From positions 1 to 42,920 of IMG/VR virus record IMGVR_UViG_2541047955_000001: a stretch of 42,920 nucleotides of DNA; one strand, 5' to 3'. The position numbers and the translations under genes were made by a program. Of this stretch, positions 7,512 through 41,088 are shown piece after piece (position 1 is the first letter of the stretch; each line of letters opens with the position of its first letter). A model generated the notes under the pieces. It was not told where the DNA came from, did not search any database, and saw nothing but the letters and a program-made list of their open reading frames with translations. This DNA comes from a virus (taxonomy: Duplodnaviria; Heunggongvirae; Uroviricota; Caudoviricetes).

Positions 7512-8480
7512 TTAGTAGGTTATTTTTGTTGCGAATACTTCGCCTTTTACGATGGCTGTTATGATATTTTTAGCAACATCTTCTGATGCACCAACCTTGA
7601 TAAGGTCAGCAAGTATTTTGTTATTTACTTCTTTCCGGTGAGCTTTATCCTTTGCTCTACGCTCTTCTTCTTCCTTGATTCTTTTTTCTTCTGCTATTCT
7701 GGCTTGCTCTTTTGCTTCAGCCTCGCGACGGATTCGTTCAGCCTCCTCCTGTGCTTTTCTGCGTTCTGCTTCAATTGCTGCCTGCTTTTCTCTTTCAGCT
7801 CGTTCTGCTGCCTCTTTTGCTTCGCGCTGTGCTCGTTGCTCGGCTTCAATGCGTTCACGCTCTGCACGTTCCGCTGCGGCCTTAGCTTCTGCTTCTCGCC
7901 TTGCTGCTGCTTCAATTTCGGCTTTTGCCTTTGCTTCGGCTTCAGCTCTGGCTTTCTCTTCAGCTTCTCTTTTTAAGCGTTCTTCATGCTCTCGCTTTTC
8001 CTGCTCCGCTTTGAGTCTTGCCTCTTCTCTTTGGCGGTCAAATTCGCGATCCATCAAAATCGCTATTTCATGGTCAGACTCAATTTGCTTTGCGAGAGCT
8101 TCAGCTGCTGCCTTAGCTTCTTCTTCGGCTTTAATCCGCGCCTGTTCTTCCTCATAATCAGTAAGAGGCTGGCGTGCCTTGGCTTTCAGTTCATCAAGGC
8201 GATCGCGCACTGTCTTGCGGTTGGCATCAATTAGCTTTGGAATTTCCTTCAGTTCAGCAACAAGGTCTTTTCCAAGACCATCGAGATATGTTTTCGTCTG
8301 CGCAACTTTATACGCCAGAGAAGCGATCTCCTTTCTGCCCTTTGCCGTTGTGATATCAGGCACAAAGGACATAACTTCACGTTCAACCTTTTGAAGGATT
8401 TCTTCAATCTGGTCGGCAGACTGAAATACAGTCATTGCATTTGCTTTTTCAATAACAACTAAATCTGTTACTTCACTCAT
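7512..8480 (-). CDS. hypothetical coiled-coil protein with Glu/Arg/Ala/Lys-rich low-complexity region
   Basis: Track ORF 7512-8534; start at MSEVTDL with GGAGGA RBS; ~170-aa tract of AEAKAKAEIEAAARREAEAKAAAERAER-type repeats. Confidence 0.6.
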   Translation of the reverse strand: MSEVTDLVVIEKANAMTVFQSADQIEEILQKVEREVMSFVPDITTAKGRKEIASLAYKVAQTKTYLDGLGKDLVAELKEIPKLIDANRKTVRDRLDELKAKARQPLTDYEEEQARIKAEEEAKAAAEALAKQIESDHEIAILMDREFDRQREEARLKAEQEKREHEERLKREAEEKARAEAEAKAKAEIEAAARREAEAKAAAERAERERIEAEQRAQREAKEAAERAEREKQAAIEAERRKAQEEAERIRREAEAKEQARIAEEKRIKEEEERRAKDKAHRKEVNNKILADLIKVGASEDVAKNIITAIVKGEVFATKITY

Positions 8481-8614
8481 ATATCCTCCATCAAAAAAAT
8501 TGCCCTCACATCGGAGGGCAAAGAAGATTTCCAATAATCAGAACAAGTCGGCTCCTGTTTAGTTAAGAGCGACATTGCTCCGTGTATTCACTCGTTGGAA
8601 TGAATACACAGTGC

Positions 8615-8803
8615 TTATTCGTCATGCATTTCAGGTAATTCTTCGTATTCGACTCCCCATACGTTTTTACACCAACTAACTCGCTCATATCTTTTACAAA
8701 AATCAGACCACATAACTTGTGTTCCATCATGGTTTGTTATTATTTCTGTAATATCACCAACACTAACAAAACTGGTATTAGAAGCAGTTATTTTTACTTT
8801 CAT
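8615..8803 (-). CDS. hypothetical protein
   Basis: 62-aa ORF in the leftward early operon. Confidence 0.4.
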   Translation of the reverse strand: MKVKITASNTSFVSVGDITEIITNHDGTQVMWSDFCKRYERVSWCKNVWGVEYEELPEMHDE

Positions 8804-9123
8804 TACTTATCTCCAAGAGCTTTTCTGATTGCTGCAAGACCTTTATTAACAGCTCCATACCATTCTGGATATGTTGTCGTTGTTCTATTTTTGGTTTGCT
8901 TAAGTAGTAACTGAAGTGCTTCGAGAAGGTCAGGCGCTGCCGCTATTAGATTGGCATCTTCAATGCATTGAACTTCCTCACAGATTGCAATATACGAACG
9001 CCAGCCTGTGCCATTTTCAAGAGAGTCTGCCTGGATGATTTTAATCTCATCGCCATCCATCATTATTTCCCACTTACCTTCAGTACCTTTAAATTCCATG
9101 TTAGCCTCTGTTGTTTGTGCCAA
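8803..9123 (-). CDS. hypothetical protein
   Basis: 106-aa ORF, protein-like composition. Confidence 0.5.
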   Translation of the reverse strand: MAQTTEANMEFKGTEGKWEIMMDGDEIKIIQADSLENGTGWRSYIAICEEVQCIEDANLIAAAPDLLEALQLLLKQTKNRTTTTYPEWYGAVNKGLAAIRKALGDK

Positions 9124-9138
9124 AAATAAAGGCCACCA

Positions 9139-9390
9139 TCAGGCAGCCTTGTTGTAAATGTTGCAGGTATCAAGTAAGTAATTAGATGGAGCGCCATAAA
9201 TTATGAATTCATCGTTTGTCGGGTCCATCTCCATCTCTTGGCCTATTGCCATTCTTGCGTCAGTGTCATCAGAGGCGAAGCATAAAACAGCCCACGCACC
9301 CATTGTTTTAAAAAGAACTGCAATTGGCTGTGGTTTTACTGAATTTGCGTTAGCGCGAAAATCACAAATCGCACTTTCATGAAACTCCAT
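9139..9390 (-). CDS. hypothetical protein
   Basis: 83-aa ORF. Confidence 0.45.
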   Translation of the reverse strand: MEFHESAICDFRANANSVKPQPIAVLFKTMGAWAVLCFASDDTDARMAIGQEMEMDPTNDEFIIYGAPSNYLLDTCNIYNKAA

Positions 9391-9444
9391 ATATCACCTC
9401 AAATAAGTGGTTTGCTGCGAAAGTAAATACGCTTAAGTTACCTG

Positions 9445-9582
9445 TTATTTATCCCACCAAGTTCCGTATCTATCTATCCAGTTACACCAATCATCGACAC
9501 TCCATTTTGTTGTGTCGCATTTTGGCAACTGGCATGAATATCTACCTTCTTTGTAAAGTCGGCGTTTGACTTTCTTGAGCAT
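9445..9582 (-). CDS. small Cys-containing hypothetical protein (45 aa)
   Basis: Not in track; MLKKVKRRLYKEGRYSCQLPKCDTTKWSVDDWCNW...; GAGGTGAG RBS. Confidence 0.35.
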   Translation of the reverse strand: MLKKVKRRLYKEGRYSCQLPKCDTTKWSVDDWCNWIDRYGTWWDK

Positions 9583-9698
9583 GGCTCACCTCAATCGTAA
9601 TAAGTTGGAATTGATTTTCCGCGTTGCTTCTGGCGGCCTGAGCAAGTCACACCCATTTCACTGCGTGGCTTGCGGTAGTAAATTAGATTTGTTCAGAC

Positions 9699-9721
9699 AA
9701 TAAAAAACCCACCGAAGTGGG
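9699..9721 (-). terminator. intrinsic terminator (minus strand)
   Basis: Minus-strand hairpin CCCAC-TTCG-GTGGG followed by T6, directly after the 9722 stop. Confidence 0.55.
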
Positions 9722-10066
9722 CTATGACCATTTTTTATTTGGATTTCGTTGGTGAGCGTGATTAACAACTCTGTGCATTACATCCTCATATTTTTCATCT
9801 TCAATTTTTTCGACATCGCGAGGAAATGGTGTTGCTAATGCTTTGTCAACTTTATCCATTGGGTCTTCATTAATCTTATATTCAGGACCGTCATCTATAG
9901 CATTAAATCCAGGTGTTACACCGTTTTTTAATGCATATGCTATCCTCTTTTCCCATCTCGCTATTCTCCTCCTGTCTCGAGATGTAAGACCTCTATCAGA
10001 TACTTTTCTGTTTTGTCCGCGGTCAGGATTAACATAAATAGTCTTTTTCACCATAAGCATACTCAA
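9722..10066 (-). CDS. hypothetical basic protein
   Basis: 114-aa ORF, highly charged, immediately downstream of the N-like gene. Confidence 0.5.
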   Translation of the reverse strand: MSMLMVKKTIYVNPDRGQNRKVSDRGLTSRDRRRIARWEKRIAYALKNGVTPGFNAIDDGPEYKINEDPMDKVDKALATPFPRDVEKIEDEKYEDVMHRVVNHAHQRNPNKKWS

Positions 10067-10368
10067 TAAGCACCGTACGGTAGTTTACTGTACAATTTTA
10101 TTTTTTGGACTGCATGTATTTTGTTTCCTAATGGGTTTGAATCTTTGTAATAAATACTTCTATTTTTTCGAACGACTTCTTCTTTCTTCTTGCAGCAAAG
10201 GATTCCTAGTGATGCTGCTTTGTCTGCTTTGACGCAACCAGAGAGCTTTAGCGCAATTTTTCGCGCCAGTGCTTCATTACTGCGTCGCTCGGCAATAAGT
10301 TCTGCTCTGCGAGCTTTGTAGCGGCTTTTTGCCGTACCTTTGGATTCTTTCCAGACAATGGTTACCAT
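10063..10368 (-). CDS. N-like transcription antiterminator (P22 gene 24 position)
   Basis: Start at MVTIVW with AAAGGAGA RBS; N-terminal arginine-rich motif GTAKSRYKARRAELIAERR; first gene of the leftward operon next to c2. Confidence 0.55.
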   Translation of the reverse strand: MVTIVWKESKGTAKSRYKARRAELIAERRSNEALARKIALKLSGCVKADKAASLGILCCKKKEEVVRKNRSIYYKDSNPLGNKIHAVQKIKLYSKLPYGAY

Positions 10369-10660
10369 GATGGTCTCCTTTAAGTGGCTTTGGCGCATGA
10401 CGCGTCGAGGTGCTTATCTTCTCGATCGCTGTCTTGCAGCTGCAATTCGCGCCATCCCCAAAACCACTCAAGTTCTGGTCTCAACGGTTAGGTTGAGAGT
10501 CCGTCGATGTTAAAGAGCCTGCCAATCTGTTCCGTTTGGCTTCCAGCGTCCTGCTGATGGCTTAAATTTAAGACTTCTTAATTTATTGGTCAAGTGCATT
10601 TTTGAAGAAAACTTAATTCTATGGGCGTGAATTTAGTTTGTCTTTGATTTTTAACGGGAA

Positions 10661-10682: not shown

Positions 10683-11333
10683 TTAAGGAAGGTTTGCTAG
10701 CTTGGCATCAACGACAACGCCAATGATTTTACAGTTCCCATTGATTTCAATCATTGGGTATTGTGGATTGAGTGGTTTCAGGAATTTTCTACCGGCATCA
10801 ATAACTAACTTTTTGAATGTCGCCTCGTTTTCTCCTTCAAGTTTGGCGACTACCAGCTTTCCATTACGTGGTTCGACTTCTGGGTCGACGAGAATAATCA
10901 TCCCCTCAGGAATACTCAGTCCTGCCGGGGCAGTCATTGAATCGCCTTTAACGTCGAGCCAAAAAGAGTCTTCAGAACAATCTACCGTTGTGTCGTACCA
11001 GTTATCTATTGCACGCCTATGATATGGCTCTACAGCTTCCATCCAACATCCTGCGCTTACCCAACTAATTAGAGGATACGAACCTCTTGGATCATGCCTG
11101 CTGTGATAGGCAATGTTTGAAAGACTATCCTCTCCTTTCAACAGGTAATCAGGGGAGCACTGCAAAGCCTTGGCTAAGGCCAATAGGTTTTCGCCATTGG
11201 GCTCAGTTTCAGATCGCTCCCATTGGGAAATAGCAACATTAGACACGCCAACCATCTTGCCAAGGGCAGCCTGCCTAATCTTGAGTTCTTTTCTGCGAGC
11301 GCGAATACGCTCACCCATCAGTTGTGTATTCAT
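10683..11333 (-). CDS. c2: C2 repressor (CI analogue, LexA/S24-like C-terminus)
   Basis: 216 aa, near-identical to P22 C2 as recalled (MNTQLMGERIRARRK...IIGVVVDAKLANLP). Confidence 0.95.
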   Translation of the reverse strand: MNTQLMGERIRARRKELKIRQAALGKMVGVSNVAISQWERSETEPNGENLLALAKALQCSPDYLLKGEDSLSNIAYHSRHDPRGSYPLISWVSAGCWMEAVEPYHRRAIDNWYDTTVDCSEDSFWLDVKGDSMTAPAGLSIPEGMIILVDPEVEPRNGKLVVAKLEGENEATFKKLVIDAGRKFLKPLNPQYPMIEINGNCKIIGVVVDAKLANLP

Positions 11334-11599: not shown

Positions 11600-11714
11600 G
11601 CAAATTGCTCTTTAACAGTTCTGGCCTTTCACCTCTAACCGGGTGAGCAAACATCAGCGGCAAATCCATTGGGTGTGCCGCTATAACTCAATATCAATAT
11701 AGGAAAATTAACAA

Positions 11715-12011
11715 ATGGCACAAGCAAGCTACAGCAAGCCAACCCAGCGAGAAATTGATCGCGCTGAAACTGATTTACTCATCAACCTGTCAACGCTTAC
11801 CCAGCGCGGTCTGGCAAAGATGATTGGCTGTCATGAATCGAAGATAAGCAGAACGGACTGGAGATTTATTGCTTCGGTCTTGTGTGCTTTCGGAATGGCA
11901 TCAGACATCAGTCCGATTAGCAGGGCTTTTAAGTATGCGCTTGATGAAATCACAAAGAAAAAATCCCCGGCCGCCACCGAGGATTTTAAGCAAATTGATA
12001 TGCAATTCTGA
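11715..12011 (+). CDS. CII-like transcriptional activator (P22 c1 position)
   Basis: 98 aa; resembles lambda CII in HTH and C-terminus (KKKSPAATE...QIDMQF). Confidence 0.7.
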   Translation: MAQASYSKPTQREIDRAETDLLINLSTLTQRGLAKMIGCHESKISRTDWRFIASVLCAFGMASDISPISRAFKYALDEITKKKSPAATEDFKQIDMQF

Positions 12012-12043
12012 GGGAATTACTGGATCAATCCACAGGAGTAATT

Positions 12044-12205
12044 ATGACAAAACGTCGTAAGAAATACCAGGAAAAAGAAGAGATTCGACACCCTGATTCA
12101 CCTGAGGGATTAGTGGTAGCCGCAGCAAATAACAGGGCGTTCGCAGAGCGCCTTGTTGGTGTTTACAGACTAGCCAAAGCAGGAGTGAAACATGGGCGTC
12201 GTTAA
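12044..12205 (+). CDS. small hypothetical protein (53 aa)
   Basis: Not in track; MTKRRKKYQEKEEIRH...; AGGAG RBS 6 nt upstream; overlaps the O-like start. Confidence 0.4.
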   Translation: MTKRRKKYQEKEEIRHPDSPEGLVVAAANNRAFAERLVGVYRLAKAGVKHGRR

Positions 12206-13022
12206 GTTAGCTGATTACAGGCCTCAACTGGAGGTCGTGGAGCATCGCGTGGCAGAACTCGAAGATGGCTACACTCGGACTGCAAACACACTGTTAGAAG
12301 CCGCCATGCTTTCTGGACTTACTCTACATCAGTTACTGATTGTTATGGCTGTGTGGCGCAAGACATACGGTTACAACAAAAAAATAGATTGGATCGGAAA
12401 CGAACAGTTCGCTGAACTCACTGGCATGGCACCAACCAAATGCTCTACCGCCAAAAACGAGCTTATCAGAATGGGAGTTCTCATTCAGGTGGGGCGTCAA
12501 GTTGGTATGAATACAAACATTTCCGAGTGGAAAACGAAAGTTAACGGATTCGGTAAAACATTTACCAATTCGGTAAAACAAACCTTCACCAAATCGGTAA
12601 AAAGCAATTTACCGAATCAGTCAAACACAAAAGACAATATACAAAAGACAATAAATACAAATACCCCCTTACCCCCTAACGGGGGCGGCGATGGGCAGGT
12701 TAAACCTGAACGTCGCAAGGCAGAACGAATCGACTACGAATCCTTCCTGAACGCCTACAACACCGAAGTCGGTGACAGACTTCCACACGCTGTTGCGGTC
12801 AACGAGAAACGAAAACGCCGCCTGAAGAAAATCATCCCGCAACTGAAAACGCCAAACGTGGACGGTTTCAGAGCGTATGTCAGGGCGTTTGTGCATCAGG
12901 CCAAGCCGTTTTACTTCGGAGACAACGACACGGGCTGGACGGCTGATTTTGATTACCTGCTGAGAGAAGACTCGTTAACGGGAGTTCGGGAAGGGAAGTT
13001 TGCAGACAGGGGGATTGCATGA
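12192..13022 (+). CDS. replication initiator, lambda O-like (P22 gene 18)
   Basis: 276 aa; contains the origin iterons internally; followed by an overlapping helicase gene. Confidence 0.85.
12546..12665 (+). repeat. replication origin: iterons plus AT-rich tract
   Basis: Three direct TTCGGTAAAACA-type repeats and an inverted TTTACCGAAT copy, then AT-rich aaagacaatatacaaaagacaataaatacaaata. Confidence 0.6.
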
Positions 13023-14395
13023 GACAGGATATCGAAGCGAGCGTTATCGGTGGCCTGCTGATTGGTGGATTAACTCCAACCGCCAGTGACGTTCTGGCAA
13101 CGCTGGAGCCGGAAGCGTTTTCAATTCCGCTCTACCGGAAAGCCTTCGAGGTTATTCGCAAGCAGGCGAGAAACAGAAACCTAATCGATGCGCTGATGGT
13201 TGCCGAGGCGTGCGGAGAGGAGCATTTCACGTCAATCCTGATGACCAGCAAAAACTGCCCGAGTGCCGCAAACCTGAAGGGATATGCCGGAATGGTCGCG
13301 GATAACTATCACCGCCGTCTGGTGCTGGAAATCATGGATGAAATGCGTGAACCAATCCAAAGCGGAACCATCGACGCATCGAGTCAGGCGATGGATGAAC
13401 TTGTAAAGCGTCTTTCAGCCATCAGAAAGCCCCGTGACGAGGTTAAACCTGTACGGTTAGGGGAAATCATCACTGACTACACTGACACGCTTGACAGGCG
13501 TCTGAGGAACGGAGAAGAGTCAGATACCCTGAAGACCGGAATCGACGAACTTGACGCCATCACCGGAGGGATGAACGCGGAAGACCTTGTGATAATCGCC
13601 GCTCGTCCTGGTATGGGGAAAACCGAACTGGCGCTGAAGATTGCCGAAGGCGTTGCAAGCCGCGTTATTCCTGGTTCTGACGTCCGGCGCGGGGTATTGA
13701 TTTTCTCAATGGAAATGAGCGCATTGCAGATTGCAGAGCGAAGCATTGCCAACGCCGGGAGGATGTCGGTTAGCGTACTGCGAAATCCTGCATCGATGGA
13801 TGACGAAGGCTGGGCGCGTGTTGCTAACGGCATGAGTCAGCTTGCAGATTTGGATGTATGGGTAGTCGATGCCTCGCGGTTATCGGTCGAAGAAATTCGC
13901 TCAATCGCAGAGCGGCACAAACAGGAAAATCCAAACCTGTCACTCATCATGGCGGATTATCTTGGCCTGATTGAGAAGCCGAAAGCAGACCGCAACGACC
14001 TCGCAATTGCTCACATCTCCGGAAGCCTGAAGGCGATGGCGAAAGACCTGAAAACACCGGTTATCTCCCTGAGTCAGCTTTCGCGCGATGTTGAGAAGCG
14101 ACCAAACAAACGCCCGACAAACGCAGATTTGCGTGATTCAGGAAGCATTGAGCAGGACGCAGACTCAATCATCATGCTCTATCGGGAAGCGGTATATGAC
14201 GAGAACAGTAGCGCCGCGCCATTTGCTGAAATCATCGTGACGAAAAACCGTTTTGGCTCGCTTGGTACGGTTTACCAGCGGTTCTGCAACGGACACTTTG
14301 TTGCATGTGACCAGGATGAAGCCAGACAGATTTGCACAGCATCAAATGCGCCTGCTGCGCGTGGCAGACGATATGCACAAGGGGCGGACGTATGA
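13019..14395 (+). CDS. DnaB-type replicative helicase (P22 gene 12)
   Basis: 458 aa; Walker [15 protein letters not shown] and DnaB-type C-terminal domain. Confidence 0.9.
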
Positions 14396-14421
14396 CCATC
14401 TACATCACTGAGCTAATAACA

Positions 14422-14448
14422 GGGGCTATTTACACAGTAGCCCTTTTT
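14422..14448 (+). terminator. intrinsic terminator (tR2-like) before the nin region
   Basis: Hairpin GGGCTA-tttacacag-TAGCCC followed by TTTTTTATT. Confidence 0.55.
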
Positions 14449-14476
14449 TATTGGATTAAGAACGAGGGGGATCCTG

Positions 14477-14689
14477 ATGGACACCGTTAACGGAATGTGT
14501 TCAGACGCACCGCGTGCCAAAAAATGTAAATGCGGAAAATCACCGACAATATTCGACATGGAGAACGGGTGCCAAATCTACTGCGCTAACCACGCTGCTG
14601 TGGCGGCCGCGAATTATCGCAGTGCGGTAACGGAGTGGAATAACCTGAAATCTGTTAGAGAGGGAAGTCATGAAAAAACTAACCTTTGA
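14477..14689 (+). CDS. hypothetical Cys-rich protein
   Basis: 70 aa; CKCGK...CQIYCANH suggests a zinc-binding fold. Confidence 0.45.
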   Translation: MDTVNGMCSDAPRAKKCKCGKSPTIFDMENGCQIYCANHAAVAAANYRSAVTEWNNLKSVREGSHEKTNL

Positions 14690-15110
14690 AATTCGATCTC
14701 CAGCACATCAGCAAAACGCTATTCACGCAGTACAGCAAATTCTTCCAGACCCAACCAAACCAATCGTAGTAACCATTCAGGAACGCAACCGCAGCTTAGA
14801 CCAGAATCGAAAGCTTTGGGCTTGCCTTGGTGACGTCTCTCGTCAGGTTGAATGGCATGGTCGCTGGCTGGATGCAGAAAGCTGGAAGTGTGTGTTTACC
14901 GCAGCATTAAAGCAGCAGGATGTTGTTCCTAACCTTGCCGGGAATGGCTTTGTGGTAATAGGTCAGTCAACCAGCAGGATGCGTGTAAGCGAATTTGCGG
15001 AGCTATTAGAGCTTATACAGGCATTCGGTACAGAGCGTGGCGTTAAGTGGTCAGACGAAGCGCGACTGGCTCTCGAATGGAAAGCGCGATGGGGAGATCG
15101 GGCTGCATGA
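14670..15110 (+). CDS. ninB: NinB (Orf-family recombination protein)
   Basis: 146 aa; matches NinB of lambdoid phages as recalled. Confidence 0.85.
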   Translation: MKKLTFEIRSPAHQQNAIHAVQQILPDPTKPIVVTIQERNRSLDQNRKLWACLGDVSRQVEWHGRWLDAESWKCVFTAALKQQDVVPNLAGNGFVVIGQSTSRMRVSEFAELLELIQAFGTERGVKWSDEARLALEWKARWGDRAA

Positions 15111-15634
15111 CTATCAAATCAAATACGCCAGCACACGACAAGGACTGCTGGCAAACGCCGCTTTGGCTTTTTGATGCACTGGATATTGAGTTTGGATTCT
15201 GGCTGGATTCGGCAGCGAGCGACAAAAATGCTCTGTGCGCTCACTGGTTAACTGAGGCCGACGACGCGCTCAATTCTGAGTGGGTAAGCCACGGTGCAAT
15301 CTGGAATAACCCACCGTACAGCAATATCAGGCCGTTGGTAGAAAAAGCCGCTGAGCAGTGCATACAACAGCGACAGACGGTAGTGATGCTTGTGCCAGAG
15401 GATATGTCAGTCGGATGGTTCAGCAAGGCTCTGGAGAGCGTTGACGAAGTTCGCATTATCACTGATGGACGGATTAATTTTATCGAACCATCGACGGGGC
15501 TGGAGAAGAAGGGAAACAGCAAAGGCTCAATGCTGCTGATTTGGCGACCGTTCATCAGTCCTCGACGGATGTTTACTACCGTATCCAAAGCGGCATTGAT
15601 GGCGATCGGGCAGGGCGTCAGGAGGGCGGCATGA
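15107..15634 (+). CDS. DNA N6-adenine methyltransferase (phage Dam family)
   Basis: Start placed at ATG overlapping the ninB stop (ATGA); NPPY catalytic motif (WNNPPYS). Confidence 0.8.
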
Positions 15635-15813
15635 GACGACAGCGACGAAGTATCACCGACATAATCTGCGAAAACTGCAAATACCTTCCAACGAAACGCT
15701 CCAGAAATAAACGCAAGCCAATCCCAAAAGAATCTGACGTAAAAACCTTCAACTACACGGCTCACCTGTGGGATATCCGGTGGCTTAGAGAACGTGCGAG
15801 GAAAACAAGGTGA
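15631..15813 (+). CDS. ninE: NinE
   Basis: 60 aa [38 protein letters not shown]... matches lambdoid NinE as recalled. Confidence 0.8.
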
Positions 15814-15980
15814 TTGACCAAAATCGAAGTTACGAACAAGGAAGTGTCGAGCGAGCTTTAACGTGCGCTAACTGCGGTCAGAAGCTGCATGTGCTGGAAG
15901 TTCATGTGTGTGAGCACTGCTGCGCAGAACTGATGAGCGATCCGAATAGCTCAATGTACGAGGAAGAAGACGATGAATGA
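15810..15980 (+). CDS. ninF: NinF (GTG start)
   Basis: 56 aa, not in track; [38 protein letters not shown]...; Cys4 motif. Confidence 0.6.
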
Positions 15981-16695
15981 GTTAATAAATGGCAATGCCA
16001 TCAAAATGACAAGCATTGAAATCGCTGAGTTGGTGGGAAGTCGTCATGACAAGGTGAAACAATCTATTGAACGACTGGCGGCTCGAGGTGTGATCCGAAA
16101 TCCCCCAATGGTGGTTTTCGAAAAAATCAATAACTTAGGATTACTTCGTGGCGTAGAGGCTTACGTTTTTGAGGGAGAACAAGGTAAGCGAGACAGTATT
16201 GTCGTTGTAGCCCAGTTGTCGCCGGAATTCACCGCTCGTCTTGTTGACCGTTGGCGAGAGCTTGAAGACGCTGCGGTTAATATCCCCAAAACTCTACCAG
16301 AAGCGTTGCGCCTTGCTGCTGATCTTGCTGAGCAGAAAATGCAACTGGAAAACCAGCTCGCAATTGCAGCACCTAAAGTTGAGTTTGCCGATCGCGTTGG
16401 CGAGGCCAGCGGAATTTTGATTGGAAACTTTGCAAAGGTTGTTGGAATTGGTCCAAACAAACTGTTTGCGTGGATGCGCGATCACAAAATCCTTATTGCT
16501 TCAGGTTCCCGGCGCAATGTGCCAATGCAGGAATATATGGATCGCGGCTATTTCACAGTGAAAGAAACAGCGGTCAATACAAATCACGGAATACAGATAT
16601 CGTTCACCACAAAAATCACCGGGCGTGGTCAACAGTGGCTGACCAGAAAGCTTCTCGATAACGGAATGCTGAAAGTAACAGGGGAGGCTGCTTAA
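15973..16695 (+). CDS. Rha-family regulatory protein with KilAC-type C-terminal domain
   Basis: 240 aa; N-terminal MTSIEIAELVGSRHDKVKQSIERL (Rha-like) and C-terminal antirepressor-like DNA-binding region. Confidence 0.7.
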   Translation: MNELINGNAIKMTSIEIAELVGSRHDKVKQSIERLAARGVIRNPPMVVFEKINNLGLLRGVEAYVFEGEQGKRDSIVVVAQLSPEFTARLVDRWRELEDAAVNIPKTLPEALRLAADLAEQKMQLENQLAIAAPKVEFADRVGEASGILIGNFAKVVGIGPNKLFAWMRDHKILIASGSRRNVPMQEYMDRGYFTVKETAVNTNHGIQISFTTKITGRGQQWLTRKLLDNGMLKVTGEAA

Positions 16696-16985
16696 TGGCT
16701 AACCTACGCAAAGAAGCGCGCGGCAGAGAATGTCAGGTACGTATTTACGGCGTATGCAATGGTAATCCTGAAACTACAGTTCTGGCACATTACCGGATGG
16801 CTGGAATTTGCGGAACGGGAATGAAACCTGACGACCTGATTGGCGCATGGGCTTGTAGCGCGTGTCACGATGAAATCGACCGACGCACCCATAATCTCGA
16901 CAACAAAGACGCCAGACTTTACCACCTCGAAGGCGTGATCAGGACGCAGGCGATACTGCTGAAGGAGGGGAAGATTAAGTCATGA
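16695..16985 (+). CDS. NinX-like protein
   Basis: 96 aa; conserved Cys/His residues; position between Rha and rusA. Confidence 0.6.
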   Translation: MANLRKEARGRECQVRIYGVCNGNPETTVLAHYRMAGICGTGMKPDDLIGAWACSACHDEIDRRTHNLDNKDARLYHLEGVIRTQAILLKEGKIKS

Positions 16986-17344
16986 ACGAATATCAGTTTG
17001 TGCTTCCATACCCGCCGTCGGTGAATACCTACTGGCGAAGACGGGGAAGCCAATACTACATCAGCGATAAAGGCCAGAAATACCGAAAAGACGTTCAGCA
17101 AATCATCCGCCAACTTAAGTTAGACATTTTCACCAAATCACGACTCCGCATCAAAGTCATCGCAGACGTTCCAGACTCCCGCCGCCGCGACCTCGACAAC
17201 ATCCTGAAAGGTTTACTCGACTCCCTTATCCACGCCGGATTTGCGGAAGACGACGAGCAATTCGATGACATTCGCGTAATTCGTGGCGTGAAAGTACCAG
17301 GCGGAAGGCTTGGAATAAAAATCACCGAACTGGAGAACGTATGA
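16982..17344 (+). CDS. rusA: RusA Holliday-junction resolvase
   Basis: 120 aa; MNEYQFVLPYPPSVNTYW... with RRRDLDN acidic catalytic region. Confidence 0.85.
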   Translation: MNEYQFVLPYPPSVNTYWRRRGSQYYISDKGQKYRKDVQQIIRQLKLDIFTKSRLRIKVIADVPDSRRRDLDNILKGLLDSLIHAGFAEDDEQFDDIRVIRGVKVPGGRLGIKITELENV

Positions 17345-17529
17345 ACGCCACAATTCAAACGATACCAGAGCTTCTTATCCAGACACGAGGCAATCAGACC
17401 GAAGTGGCGAGGATGCTTTCCTGCGCAAGAGGAACGGTGCTCAAGTACAACCGAGACAGCAAAGGCGAACGTCACGTAATAGTTAACGGCGTCCTGATGG
17501 TCAAACAGGGCAAGAGAGGAAGACGATGA
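17341..17529 (+). CDS. ninH: NinH
   Basis: 62 aa; GNQTEVARMLSCARGTV HTH resembles lambda NinH. Confidence 0.7.
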   Translation: MNATIQTIPELLIQTRGNQTEVARMLSCARGTVLKYNRDSKGERHVIVNGVLMVKQGKRGRR

Positions 17530-18014
17530 GCATAAGAGAACTAAACCTCACCAAAGAACAGCACGAGTGGCTGAATGGCTGGCTTGAACTGTGGGGCGCA
17601 TGGGTTTATTCAGGTCGTCTGGAAAAGCGCATGAGCAGCGTAATAGCGAAGTTCATGGAGAGCGTAGAGCCGGGAAGAGTTATGACAAGGCCAATGTGTA
17701 ATGATGATGATGGAATGTTGATTTCTCAGGTCGTCGATTCCGTCATGTACATTGACAAGAAAGCCTTTGGAATCCTCCTCAGCTACTACGCTCATGGCTC
17801 TTCCAAGCACGCCATTGCATCTTACTATCATCGCGTCGCAAGACCTCGCAAGATGTTATGCCGGGGCGGCGGGCGCATTCAAAAACCATCGCTCGCAACC
17901 TGTCGACGGGAAGTTGACGAAATCCTCAATGCCTCGTTGTTTATGATTTACCCGGTTCTGGATAGTGCGTTTAAAAACCGGAAACGTGTAGAGAAAATTA
18001 AACATGTAGCATAG
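17526..18014 (+). CDS. late-gene antiterminator Q (P22 gene 23 type)
   Basis: 162 aa; last gene of the nin operon, immediately upstream of a promoter/terminator and the lysis cassette. Confidence 0.7.
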   Translation: MSIRELNLTKEQHEWLNGWLELWGAWVYSGRLEKRMSSVIAKFMESVEPGRVMTRPMCNDDDGMLISQVVDSVMYIDKKAFGILLSYYAHGSSKHAIASYYHRVARPRKMLCRGGGRIQKPSLATCRREVDEILNASLFMIYPVLDSAFKNRKRVEKIKHVA

Positions 18015-18060
18015 AACGTGTTGACATCATTGAGCAAATGAGCAACACTATTCGCATAAG
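18015..18060 (+). promoter_or_regulatory. putative late promoter PR' / Q-utilisation region
   Basis: TTGACA at 18020-18025 right after the Q stop; position equivalent to lambda PR'. Confidence 0.35.
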
Positions 18061-18061
18061 C

Positions 18062-18100
18062 TGCCGTTAGTGACTCTTAAGTTGCAACGGTGGCTTTTTT
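18062..18100 (+). terminator. putative tR'-like terminator
   Basis: CCGTT...AACGG stem and GC-rich segment followed by T7 (tggcttttttta). Confidence 0.4.
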
Positions 18101-18105
18101 TATTT

Positions 18106-18180
18106 GGGTCAGTCGTATAAAGGTCATTACGGAAGGCTGTTAACCTTCTTATCGTGGTTCGAGTCCACGCTGTCCCGCCA
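18106..18180 (+). tRNA. tRNA-like, Asn (GUU) anticodon, imperfect stems
   Basis: 75 nt ending CCA; anticodon stem GAAGG/CCTTC, loop CTGTTAA; T-loop TTCGAGT; one T-T mismatch in acceptor and D stems. Confidence 0.45.
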
Positions 18181-18185
18181 AATAT

Positions 18186-18261
18186 GCTGGTTTAGCTCCA
18201 ATGGTAGAGCGGTCGCCTTGTAAGCGAATGGGTAGCGGTTCAAGTCCGTTAACCAGCACCA
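18186..18261 (+). tRNA. tRNA-Thr (UGU)
   Basis: 76 nt; 7-bp acceptor stem GCTGGTT/AACCAGC; D stem GCTC/GAGC; anticodon loop CTTGTAA; T-loop TTCAAGT; 3' CCA. Confidence 0.6.
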
Positions 18262-18503
18262 TAACTGAGCCGTAGCCACTGGCTATCCTGAATTCATCAG
18301 TGATAGTTACGCTGCGGCCTTCTACACATGACCTTCGTGAAAGCGGGTGGCAAGAGGCTGCGCTAACAACCTCCTGCCGTTTTGCCCGTGCATATCGGTC
18401 ACGAACAAATCTGATTACTAAACACAGTAGCCTGGATTTGTTCTATCAGTAATCGACCTTATTCCTAATTAAATAGAGCAAATCCCCTTATTGGGGGTAA
18501 GAC

Positions 18504-18827
18504 ATGAAGATGCCAGAAAAACATGACCTGTTAGCCGCCATTCTCGCGGCAAAGGAACAAGGCATCGGGGCAATCCTTGCGTTTGCAATGGCGTACCTTC
18601 GCGGCAGATATAATGGCGGTGCGTTTACAAAAACAGTAATCGACGCAACGATGTGCGCCATTATCGCCTGGTTCATTCGTGATCTTCTCGACCTCGCCGG
18701 ACTAAGTAGCAATCTCGCTTATATAACGAGCGTGTTCATCGGCTACATCGGTACTGACTCGATTGGTTCGCTTATCAAACGCTTCGCTGCTAAAAAAGCC
18801 GGAGTAGAAGATGGTGGAAATCAATAA
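18504..18827 (+). CDS. S: holin, lambda S type with dual-start motif
   Basis: 107 aa [39 protein letters not shown]... near-identical to lambda S as recalled. Confidence 0.95.
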
Positions 18828-19287
18828 TCAACGTAAGGCGTTCCTCGATATGCTGGCGTGGTCAGAGGGAACTGATAACGGACGACAGAAAACCAGAAAT
18901 CATGGTTATGACGTCATTGTAGGCGGAGAGCTATTCACTGATTACTCCGATCACCCTCGCAAACTTGTCACGCTAAACCCCAAACTCAAATCAACAGCAG
19001 CCGGACGTTACCAGCTTCTTTCCCGTTGGTGGGATGCCTACCGCAAGCAGCTTGGCCTGAAAGACTTCTCTCCGAAAAGTCAGGACGCTGTGGCATTGCA
19101 GCAGATTAAGGAGCGTGGCGCTTTGCCGATGATTGATCGTGGTGATATTCGTCAGGCAATTGACCGTTGCAGCAATATCTGGGCTTCACTGCCGGGCGCT
19201 GGTTATGGTCAGTTCGAGCATAAGGCTGACAGCCTGATTGCAAAATTCAAAGAAGCAGGCGGAACGGTCAGAGAGATTGAGGTATGA
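18811..19287 (+). CDS. R: endolysin, lambda R lytic transglycosylase
   Basis: 158 aa [39 protein letters not shown]... near-identical to lambda R as recalled. Confidence 0.95.
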
Positions 19288-38373: not shown

Positions 38374-41088
38374 ATGTTTATTATGCCAGAACAATTATAC
38401 AACGTTGTTGTTTCACAACCAAGTCAGTTATTTACTTTAGCTCGCTCGTTTAAAGCAAATGCCAATGGCAAAATTTATATCGGTAAAATTGACACTGACC
38501 CTGTAAATCCTGAAAACCAGATTCAGGTTTATGTGGAGAACGAAGACGGTTCTCACGTTCCTGTTTCGCAACCAATAATCATTAACGCTGCCGGATATCC
38601 GGTATATAACGGACAGATTGCCAAATTCGTAACCGTGCAAGGCCATTCTATGGCTGTTTACGATGCTTATGGCACTCAGCAGTTTTATTTTCCAAATGTA
38701 TTAAAATACGATCCAGATCAGTTTGGCCCAGACTTCAAAGAGCAGTTATCTCAATCAGGAGCATACATTAATGATGATTCAAAAGGTGATGCATTAATTG
38801 GGGTAAGGCAGCCATTTACCGGGGCTGCAACTATAACTCAGCATGAAAACAATGCTCTTTTCTTAAATGTAAAACAATTTGGAGCAATTGGGGATGGGAA
38901 ATATCATCCATTATCTGAGTGGTTTTCTTCAATTTCTGAAGCAAAATCCTTATATCCTTTTGTTGACTCATTATCTCAGTCAATAGACTGGGCCGCGTGG
39001 CAAGCTGCCCTTAACACAGGAAAGGTTATTTATGGTACTGATAATGCGTATGTAATAACGGATACGTTAACACCTGTTTCTGGTGGTGGGATAATTTGTC
39101 TTGGTGTGGGCAAATGGGTCTCAGGATATACTGCAACATTTGCTCCTGATATTACCACAGGGACCACATTCCTGATGTACGGGGTAGGAAATAAAAAATA
39201 TACTGTAGATTGTGTTTCTAATATGGATGTTAGTGGTGGTGTGGTTTCTAACCCATCTTCCGAAGACCCGTATACAACAACGGCACCTGCGTCATCATAT
39301 GATTTATTGGATTTTACTAACGGTGATGCTAATGGGACTACAAGAGCCACGCTTAAACCATTCTCTGCCGCAATATTGATGCCTGAGACAGGATGTGTTC
39401 GCCTTGAGAACTTTCGTGTTGTTCCATATTTCAATGGGCTGGATGGTTATAAAGACATTGCAAATACCGGTCTTGGCGATGAGTGGGATGTAGGTATTTG
39501 GTCACGTGCGTCTTTTGGCAATGAATACCGCAATTTGCAGGTGGTTGGATACTGGCGCAAGACGGCACTTTTAAAAACGAACATTCCTGTATCTGGCACG
39601 CTGGCCGCTCAGGGCGAGGATGAAAACTATTATCACTGTAGATTCCAAGGATTCAAGGGTATTTCGATCCGCGCCCATGATGTATTCCGAATTACAGCGG
39701 TAACGTCCAGCACTATCGAAATACCATGGTCAGCAAGCCACACCTTCGAAACGTCCGGGGTTTTAAGATCTGGAGGCAGGAATTTCACTTATTCAGGATT
39801 ATCCGTATCCGGTGATAAGTTAGTATTTACTGGAGTGTCTAACGCTTCTGAGGCAACAGTAGGTTCTACTATACGGCGAAATGACATAGATAACTTTGGT
39901 ATGGCGGGAACGCAATTTTTCGATTGCTACATTACCAGCCTGTATCACCACACACATCTGCTTGCCACATCGCAATACCTGTCTCAACCATTCAGCCGAC
40001 CATCAGAGTGTATGGAGGTTTCAGGGGAACCAGTTCGCGGTGTACAGGTACATGCAGGAACCATTCAGGGATGGGATGATGTTCTTATTCATCTACATGA
40101 CTGTGGAAATATGAACTTTTACAGTACATATTTCGAAAGCCAGCAAGCATATGTAACTATAAATGGTGGTAATGCTATTGGTTATGGAGCACGTATGATA
40201 GCTTCCCGGCAATCAACAAGCTCATTACCATATGCAGCAGGGAATACTCGAGTGCTTAGAATGGTCGGGTGCTCTGAAGGCAATGGCGTTGACTGGGGTC
40301 CTGTATTTAACAACTATACAGGAGGAAGATATAATTCCGGAGACGGTGTATTTAACCCCCGCGATGCATTTATAGACCATAAATCTCTTCCTGAGCAGTC
40401 AGGAGGTGAGTCAAGACTCGTATCACAAAAAGGAAATGCCAGAGTAGTATGTGGTGTTGGTAAAACTGTACTGCTTGGACCAACGTCAGGAGATTGTAAT
40501 TTACAGAGTAATACTGGAAGTTTAAATATTAGAAGTGGGATAAGAGTAAGAATCGGTCACGCTGATGGAACAGACTGGTGGTTGGCAGATGCTAATAAAA
40601 TAGCTCCTGTTGATGATAATGTTAAAGCCATTGGACAGCCATCAAACAGATGCTCTGTTATTTATGCAGGAACCGGGTCAATCAATACATCAGATGAAAC
40701 TCTTAAAACAAGATATGATATTCTTAATGCAGAGCGTGATGCCGCTATTGAAATAAAGTCAGTCATCTATAAATTTAAATTTAATGACTCAATTAATAAC
40801 AAAGGAATTGAGTCGTCCAGGTATCATTTTGGCGTTGGCGCTCAAACCGTAGGGGATATTCTTAGAAAGCATGGTTTAAACCCTGAGCAATATGCTTTTT
40901 GGTGTTACGATGAATGGCCTGACGTATGGGATGAAGAGGTGATAACTGAAGAGAGCACAGATCCTGATACAGGTGAGAAAATTTATTCTCAATATAAAAC
41001 AGGAGATATGATTCTTGTAAAAAAAGCAGGAGGACGCTACGGAATTCGTTATGACGAATTGGCTATGTTTATATTAATGGCAATGTAG
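38374..41088 (+). CDS. tailspike: P22/Sf6-type head-binding domain, beta-helix depolymerase, C-terminal S74 chaperone domain
   Basis: 904 aa; conserved N-terminal head-binding region; FGAIGDGK beta-helix start motif; C-terminal SDETLK...[10 protein letters not shown]74 signature; true start may be ATG at 38383. Confidence 0.9.

Follow-up and report, generated by a model that had tools for sequence, protein, structure and literature searches.

The 42,920-nucleotide (nt) stretch of DNA analysed here (the window), positions 1 to 42,920 of the IMG/VR virus record IMGVR_UViG_2541047955_000001 (Caudoviricetes), contains a prophage in which the gene at 15107-15634 on the + strand encodes a phage N-6-adenine methyltransferase of 175 amino acids. 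Very probably this is the standard orphan adenine-N6 methyltransferase of lambdoid phages, a delayed-early gene that forms one link of the nin gene chain and whose product targets GATC. All of this is already documented, from the gene and its family to the target of a near-identical relative and the nin arrangement, and the locus is very common in Escherichia coli prophages.

The methyltransferase gene and its family

The protein matches the Pfam family PF05869, named 'DNA N-6-adenine-methyltransferase (Dam)', with E=9e-64 and a score of 214.7 bits (cut-off 28.1), its residues 4-169 being aligned with positions 1-167 of the 169 in the profile. In REBASE terms it is of the M.EcoVT2Dam/M.EcoT1Dam type. 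It also matches phrog_111 ('DNA methyltransferase') and TIGR01712, a model of the equivalog type named 'phage N-6-adenine-methyltransferase', the latter with 261.8 bits against a cut-off of 97.05. Only nine residues are left out by the Pfam profile, as in a small single-domain protein. The catalytic motif IV, NPPY, occupies amino acids 68-71 (codons at 15308-15319, + strand), and N68, P69, P70 and Y71 are invariant both in 34 close sequences and in a nine-sequence set that includes distant ones. A preliminary description of this DNA, made from the sequence alone, had placed an NPPY-motif adenine methyltransferase between ninB and ninE, and the motif, the family matches and the NinB and NinE neighbours all bear this out. 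The same description had termed the enzyme an orphan. In agreement with this, the neighbouring genes encode NinB, NinE and NinF with no endonuclease partner adjacent, so that the adjacent cognate endonuclease gene of a type II restriction-modification system is absent here.

The protein is identical in 174 of 175 residues to orf32 of the Stx2 phage VT2-Sakai (NP_050531.1) and 98% identical to the corresponding gene product of phage HK97. At the DNA level, the region 14477-15980 is 97.5% identical to HK97 across its full length, and 424 phage records match it partly or wholly, including mEp506, HK544, 434, SfI and many Shiga toxin (Stx)-converting phages. Of 5426 complete E. coli genomes, 1566 (~29%) contain the methyltransferase gene at a DNA identity of at least 95%, as do HK97, 434, SfI and many Stx phages, and its slot between ninB and ninE is constant among the E. 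coli records listed. Two competing open reading frames (ORFs) lie over the same DNA. A longer, GTG-started frame at 15047-15634 (195 amino acids) was ruled out, as all full-length homologues begin at the methionine equivalent to the ATG at 15107. An antisense frame of 174 amino acids at 15241-15765 on the - strand was set aside because of the strong, full-length family match of the + strand frame.

Structural comparison places the protein in a broad fold class, apart from the classical Dam enzymes. In a Pfam search at E<=0.01, PF05869 was its sole match, with none to the family of E. coli Dam (MethyltransfD12), and a sequence search of the PDB returned no methyltransferase chain, giving weak matches to SdiA and to a DHH-subfamily protein. 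An AlphaFold model built from a 34-sequence alignment (predicted local distance difference test (pLDDT) score 73, predicted template modelling (TM) score 0.76) shows one alpha/beta domain. When this model was compared with the PDB by Foldseek, all matches were weak, the best being the human cap-adenosine N6-methyltransferase PCIF1/CAPAM (E=1e-3, TM 0.53), followed by TrmM, METTL3-14 and CamA, with E. coli Dam chains at E=0.09-0.15 and TM ~0.3 (best 0.30). These matches fit the fold class and say nothing on specificity; with the model, they support a predicted N6-adenine Rossmann methyltransferase fold. The protein thus has neither the profile match nor the structural similarity, DNA-recognition domain included, of a classical Dam enzyme. 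With the alpha-class enzymes E. coli Dam, T4 Dam and DpnM it shares the N6-adenine chemistry, the (D/N)PPY motif and the reported GATC target, whereas it is ~100 residues shorter, lacks a separate DNA-recognition domain and belongs to another family.

GATC as the predicted target

The predicted specificity comes from the VT2 relative. We take VT2-Sakai orf32 to be M.EcoVT2Dam; this equation is our own, since the passage quoted next names only the prophage VT2-Sa and gives no locus. There, M.EcoVT2Dam, an orphan methyltransferase of prophage VT2-Sa, is described as 'known to target 5'-GATC-3'', a statement that refers to Radlinska & Bujnicki 2001 (PMC6602927). Given its near identity (99.4%) to the VT2 enzyme, the present protein would be expected to methylate GATC at its adenine. 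The label 'Dam-type' used in the preliminary description therefore holds for the specificity, as reported for M.EcoVT2Dam, and for the Pfam name, and fails for the family, which is PF05869/TIGR01712 and not that of E. coli or T4 Dam. M.EcoVT2Dam and the orthologues in HK97, 434, SfI and Stx phages have the same length, the NPPY motif, the slot between ninB and ninE and ATGA overlaps on both sides. The present copy differs from M.EcoVT2Dam by a leucine in place of tryptophan at position 77 (W77L), and its phage is a P22-like/CUS-3-like mosaic and not an Stx phage.

Two other enzymes with GATC activity have been reported. An enzyme with 35% identity to M.EcoT1Dam methylates GATC with significant off-target activity (PMC4996451), and PamA, a Dam-like NPPY enzyme of a Staphylococcus aureus prophage, methylates GATC (PMC12435837). 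The off-target activity of the former would fit a different reading, namely that the present enzyme has relaxed or other specificity, methylating many adenines as Hia5 or M.EcoGII do, or a non-GATC motif, and serves as a broad anti-restriction device. The absence of a separate target-recognition domain, the 175 residues being almost fully spanned by the profile, points the same way, and some prophages encode adenine methyltransferases that are non-specific (PMC3299994). We nevertheless give this reading very little probability, because the protein is identical in all but one residue to the VT2-Sakai enzyme, which is reported to be GATC-specific, and because the Hia5 group is, according to its authors, related to classical Dam, DpnM and T4 Dam (PMC3299994). 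The Hia5 group was also rejected as the relevant family: the Hia5 paper places Hia5 with classical Dam-related enzymes, and those of VT2, HP1 or T1 do not appear in it.

The nin gene chain and its predicted expression

Ten + strand genes between 14477 and 18014 abut without any intergenic base over 3.5 kb, as read from the ORF list and the sequence. They are, in order, a gp60-like, cysteine-rich ORF of 70 amino acids (14477-14689; phrog_6308, E=4e-54), which is the first gene of the chain; ninB, encoding an Orf-type recombination mediator (14670-15110; PF05772, E=1e-54; phrog_72); the methyltransferase gene; ninE (15631-15813; PF05322, E=3e-43); ninF, with a GTG start (15810-15980; PF05810, E=2e-12; phrog_672); a roi/ant-type gene for a KilAC-domain protein (15973-16695; PF03374, E=9e-33); a gene for a ybcO-family putative nuclease (16695-16985; PF07102, E=2e-44); rusA, for a Holliday-junction resolvase (16982-17344; PF05866, E=1e-16); ninH (17341-17529; PF06322, E=2e-24); and the late-gene antiterminator gene Q, the last of the chain (17526-18014; PF06530, E=9e-25; phrog_943). 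Pfam matches above the curated cut-off were obtained for 9 of the 10, the exception being the gp60-like ORF, a member of phrog_6308 with function unknown.

The nine consecutive junctions all overlap, by 20, 4, 4, 4, 8, 1, 4, 4 and 4 nt along the chain. A chain of overlapping stop and start codons from ninB to Q had been proposed in the preliminary description, and it is confirmed by reading the sequence, by counts against shuffled DNA and by the like annotation of HK97. The ATGA motifs at 15107-15110 (ninB stop and methyltransferase start), 15631-15634 (methyltransferase and ninE), 17341-17344 (rusA and ninH) and 17526-17529 (ninH and Q) and the GTGA at 15810-15813 (ninE and ninF) are all found where they had been listed, in the sequence and in the ORF list. 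The TAATG motif also exists, although its position had been misplaced by 2 nt: it spans 16693-16697, and it is its ATG that lies at 16695. Three overlaps had escaped that list, namely the ATGA at 16982-16985 (ybcO and rusA), the 8-nt ATGAATGA at 15973-15980 (ninF and roi) and the 20-nt overlap at 14670-14689. Moreover, position 14477, from which the region had been delimited, is the start of the gp60-like ORF, which had not been mentioned; ninB begins at 14670. Between frames with 50 or more open codons, stop/start junctions of 1 or 4 nt averaged 0.20, with a maximum of 3, in 1000 mononucleotide shuffles of 14477-18014, against 7 in the real sequence.

Purine runs resembling Shine-Dalgarno (SD) sequences lie upstream of every start in the chain, with GGAG 10 nt before the ATG of the methyltransferase gene, GGAGG 13 nt before the start of rusA and others at 5-8 nt before several further genes. 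The overlap geometry together with these SD-like motifs suggests that the genes of the chain may be translationally coupled. Ribosomes that end translation of ninB would re-initiate on the methyltransferase gene, a contribution that is probable beside that of its own GGAG.

The NinB, NinE, NinF, NinH and Q families, following a DnaB-type gene in the P position, place the chain in a lambdoid nin region, which it resembles in its location between P and Q, its nin-family genes and its ATGA-type overlaps. In this region the prophage is collinear with HK97 at 97.5% identity, and the same overlaps are annotated there. The nin genes are described as 'exceptionally tightly packed' in all lambdoid phages, with numerous ATGA motifs (PMC8022706, citing Kroger & Hobom 1982 and Cheng et al. 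1995). The ATGA-linked chain is thus an already known arrangement, described for lambdoid phages since 1982. It resembles the 'chain of interlinked genes' of lambda ninR in that the stretch from P to Q is tightly filled with non-essential genes, that ATGA overlaps join them and that a terminator requiring N antitermination precedes them, and differs from it in being another mosaic, with methyltransferase, roi/ant, ybcO and rusA genes as in HK97. Lambda itself carries other genes in those nin slots.

Among public-database sequences, the ORFs P0002, P0005, P0011 and P0013 join the methyltransferase to a NinE, CII, RusA or NinB domain. Such fusion ORFs probably stem from frameshifts, from joints between mosaic segments or from errors of gene calling at ATGA junctions.

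The gp60-like ORF at the head of the chain occurs in 15 phage records, all at an identity of at least 95%, and is a homologue of HK97 gp60; it gave no match to NCBIfam or, even at E<=10, to Pfam. The corresponding slot of VT2-Sakai is occupied by a Lar-like gene, so a Lar-like restriction-alleviation identity was considered for the ORF and rejected as unsupported. The VT2-Sakai Lar-like protein matches PF14354 at 2e-10, whereas the present ORF does not, and a BLASTP comparison of the two gave no alignment.

The genes upstream of the chain are those of a lambdoid early region: cI (10683-11333, - strand), cro, cII, an O-type replication gene and the DnaB-type gene in the P position (13019-14395). 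An ORF at 10063-10398 on the - strand, without a Pfam match, carries the arginine-rich motif GTAKSRYKARRAELIAERR in its translation, by which we presume its product to be an N protein of the phi21 type, and thus an N-type antiterminator. Between cro and cII, at 11606-11647 on the + strand, lies a nutR-like site composed of a boxA-like TGCTCTTTAACA and a boxB hairpin (CACCU-CUAACC-GGGUG), which we likewise take to be of the phi21 type. A strong terminator-like hairpin (14421-14450, + strand), located where lambda has tR2, separates the P-position gene from the nin chain; it is made up of a 10-pair stem followed by TTTTATT and dominates the minimum-free-energy fold (z=-2.4). A promoter scan of 12000-19000 yielded nothing beyond four 9-of-12 matches, against 6.4 expected from shuffles, and none on the + strand between the terminator and the methyltransferase gene. 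An internal promoter for expression in the prophage state was accordingly rejected, the matches being fewer than shuffles predict. Adjoining the N-type gene, a further - strand ORF (9722-10066) without a Pfam match contains the arginine-rich stretch SRDRRRIARWEKR.

The operon order, the nutR-like site, the terminator-like hairpin and the lack of a convincing internal promoter together suggest that the methyltransferase gene is delayed-early, silent in the lysogen and expressed only after N antitermination. Transcription of the rightward operon would run from pR through cro, nutR, cII, O, P and the tR2-like terminator into the nin genes and Q, and the methyltransferase would be made after N-mediated antitermination, in lytic growth or on induction.

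This predicted expression also bears on the idea that the main target of the enzyme is the lysogenic host, and not lytic phage DNA, so that it would be an epigenetic regulator of lysogenic conversion like PamA. There is a precedent, since PamA, a prophage-encoded, Dam-like NPPY enzyme, affects both the gene expression and the virulence of its host S. aureus (PMC12435837). PamA, from strain USA300, resembles the present protein in being a small, prophage-borne orphan NPPY enzyme with a GATC target. The two settings differ, however. The GATC sites of the host of PamA are DpnI-resistant without it, S. aureus DNA being DpnI-sensitive only when pamA is present, and its presence changes virulence gene expression (PMC12435837). 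In contrast, the host of the present phage has its own Dam, which already methylates 97.8-98.9% of GATC sites in E. coli (PMC3893438), and a terminator precedes the gene within a lytic operon expected to be silent under the cI repressor, without a convincing internal promoter in the region scanned. A host-directed role is therefore most improbable.

Residue 77, host Dam and the prophage setting

Several observations weigh against the assignment of the locus as an active member of the lambdoid family, and the first concern residue 77. Codon 77 (15335-15337, + strand) is TTG for leucine where relatives have TGG for tryptophan, a rare allele, and the G to T change at 15336 is the one nucleotide at which the closest complete E. 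coli genome differs. All 33 other aligned homologues (59-98% identity) have W at position 77, and all five distant homologues, from T1-like, Vibrio, Lactococcus, Pasteurella and Gordonia phages (34-39% identity), have W or F. In the AlphaFold model this position lies six residues past the catalytic tyrosine, where the helix after NPPY begins. The exact allele (WP_021575660.1) is found on 3 contigs, against 24 to 304 for the other alleles listed in its 2325-member cluster. Owing to the substitution at this conserved aromatic position, the present copy may have reduced activity or none. In addition, the structure model is of moderate quality at its pLDDT of 73, with residues 34-52 low, and neither the PDB sequence search nor Foldseek found a solved structure of the PF05869 family. 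For most genes of the chain, an SD-like sequence of their own is available beside any coupling by overlap. As to function, phage Dam enzymes have a role described as 'still not well understood' (PMC7556043), and with a dam+ E. coli as host the methyltransferase activity would be largely redundant.

Taken to its end, the argument from residue 77 would make this a decaying prophage copy, in which W77L inactivates or severely weakens the enzyme and the locus methylates nothing. The aromatic character of the position in every homologue checked, its closeness to the catalytic loop, the rarity of the allele and its being the only nucleotide change from the nearest complete genome all speak for decay. 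The exchange for leucine is, however, conservative and keeps the residue hydrophobic; the rest of the ORF is intact, L77 being the one departure from the family-wide conserved residues with every other invariant column kept; and the surrounding operon bears no other sign of decay, every ORF having its full length relative to its profile. We therefore regard decay as unlikely, though worth bearing in mind. W77L is a point variant inside the family and gives no grounds for excluding the protein from it, and comparing L77 with the common allele would cheaply reveal the role of residue 77.

If the protein is an active GATC methyltransferase of the standard kind, as we favour, a small Rossmann enzyme with an NPPY catalytic loop would transfer methyl groups from S-adenosylmethionine to the adenine of GATC, the site that host Dam also modifies. 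Virion DNA of lambda and P22 is under-methylated by host Dam, possibly as replication outstrips modification (PMC8022706). The phage enzyme could thus top up the GATC methylation of fast-replicating phage DNA that host Dam leaves under-methylated. This would shield progeny from MboI/DpnII-type restriction in the next host and from MutH nicking, and would hold Dam-sensitive phage functions in the methylated state. Such topping-up of progeny methylation appears to be the likeliest benefit and the most economical reading.

Because host Dam already methylates GATC, an induction in a dam+ host that yields no new motif could not refute activity, and methylome tests would be informative in a Dam-negative background. 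Expression in a Dam-negative host followed by DpnI/MboI digestion, the standard way to assay GATC specificity, was used for another phage GATC enzyme (PMC7556043) and presumably for the VT2 enzyme too. We consider it very unlikely that W77L alters the enzyme and does not simply weaken it, for example by relaxing its GATC specificity, or, more generally, that the methyltransferase is non-redundant in a dam+ host, for instance by out-competing MutH or by switching a Dam-sensitive phage promoter; a non-redundant role, if true, would be one that nobody has defined for lambdoid phages. The locus itself carries little weight as a discovery, and the general question it touches is what a GATC methyltransferase gains for a phage whose host has Dam.

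GATC is depleted in the prophage (1445-42000), with 84 sites against 193 expected from a Markov model or 157 from base composition, which we count among the points in favour of the standard reading. This corresponds to 0.44 of the Markov expectation and 2.07 sites per kb, and among palindromic 4-mers only CTAG is more depleted. Two stretches of ~2 kb each, 8325-10424 and 12392-14470, are free of GATC. Upstream of a tRNA-Thr (CGT) gene in the host flank lies an aldehyde-dehydrogenase-family gene, which we take to be proA; this 1.25-kb flank has 9 GATC sites (7.2 per kb). No GATC clusters were found near regulatory sites of the prophage, the only clusters (3 sites within 120 bp) being in the proA flank.

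The tRNA-Thr (CGT) gene, at 1369-1444, adjoins the prophage, and the integrase gene lies at 1459-2619. Between Q and the holin gene, at 18106-18261, are two phage-borne genes for tRNA-Asn (GTT) and tRNA-Thr (TGT). The closest E. coli genome has this Asn/Thr pair in its annotation as well. In Stx phages, the same slot carries tRNAs and the stx genes. The virion module is P22-like (portal, coat), and its 904-amino-acid tailspike (38374-41088) joins a P22 head-binding N-terminus to a C-terminal Peptidase_S74 (endosialidase chaperone) domain. Across the left 21 kb of the window, the best phage by DNA identity is CUS-3.

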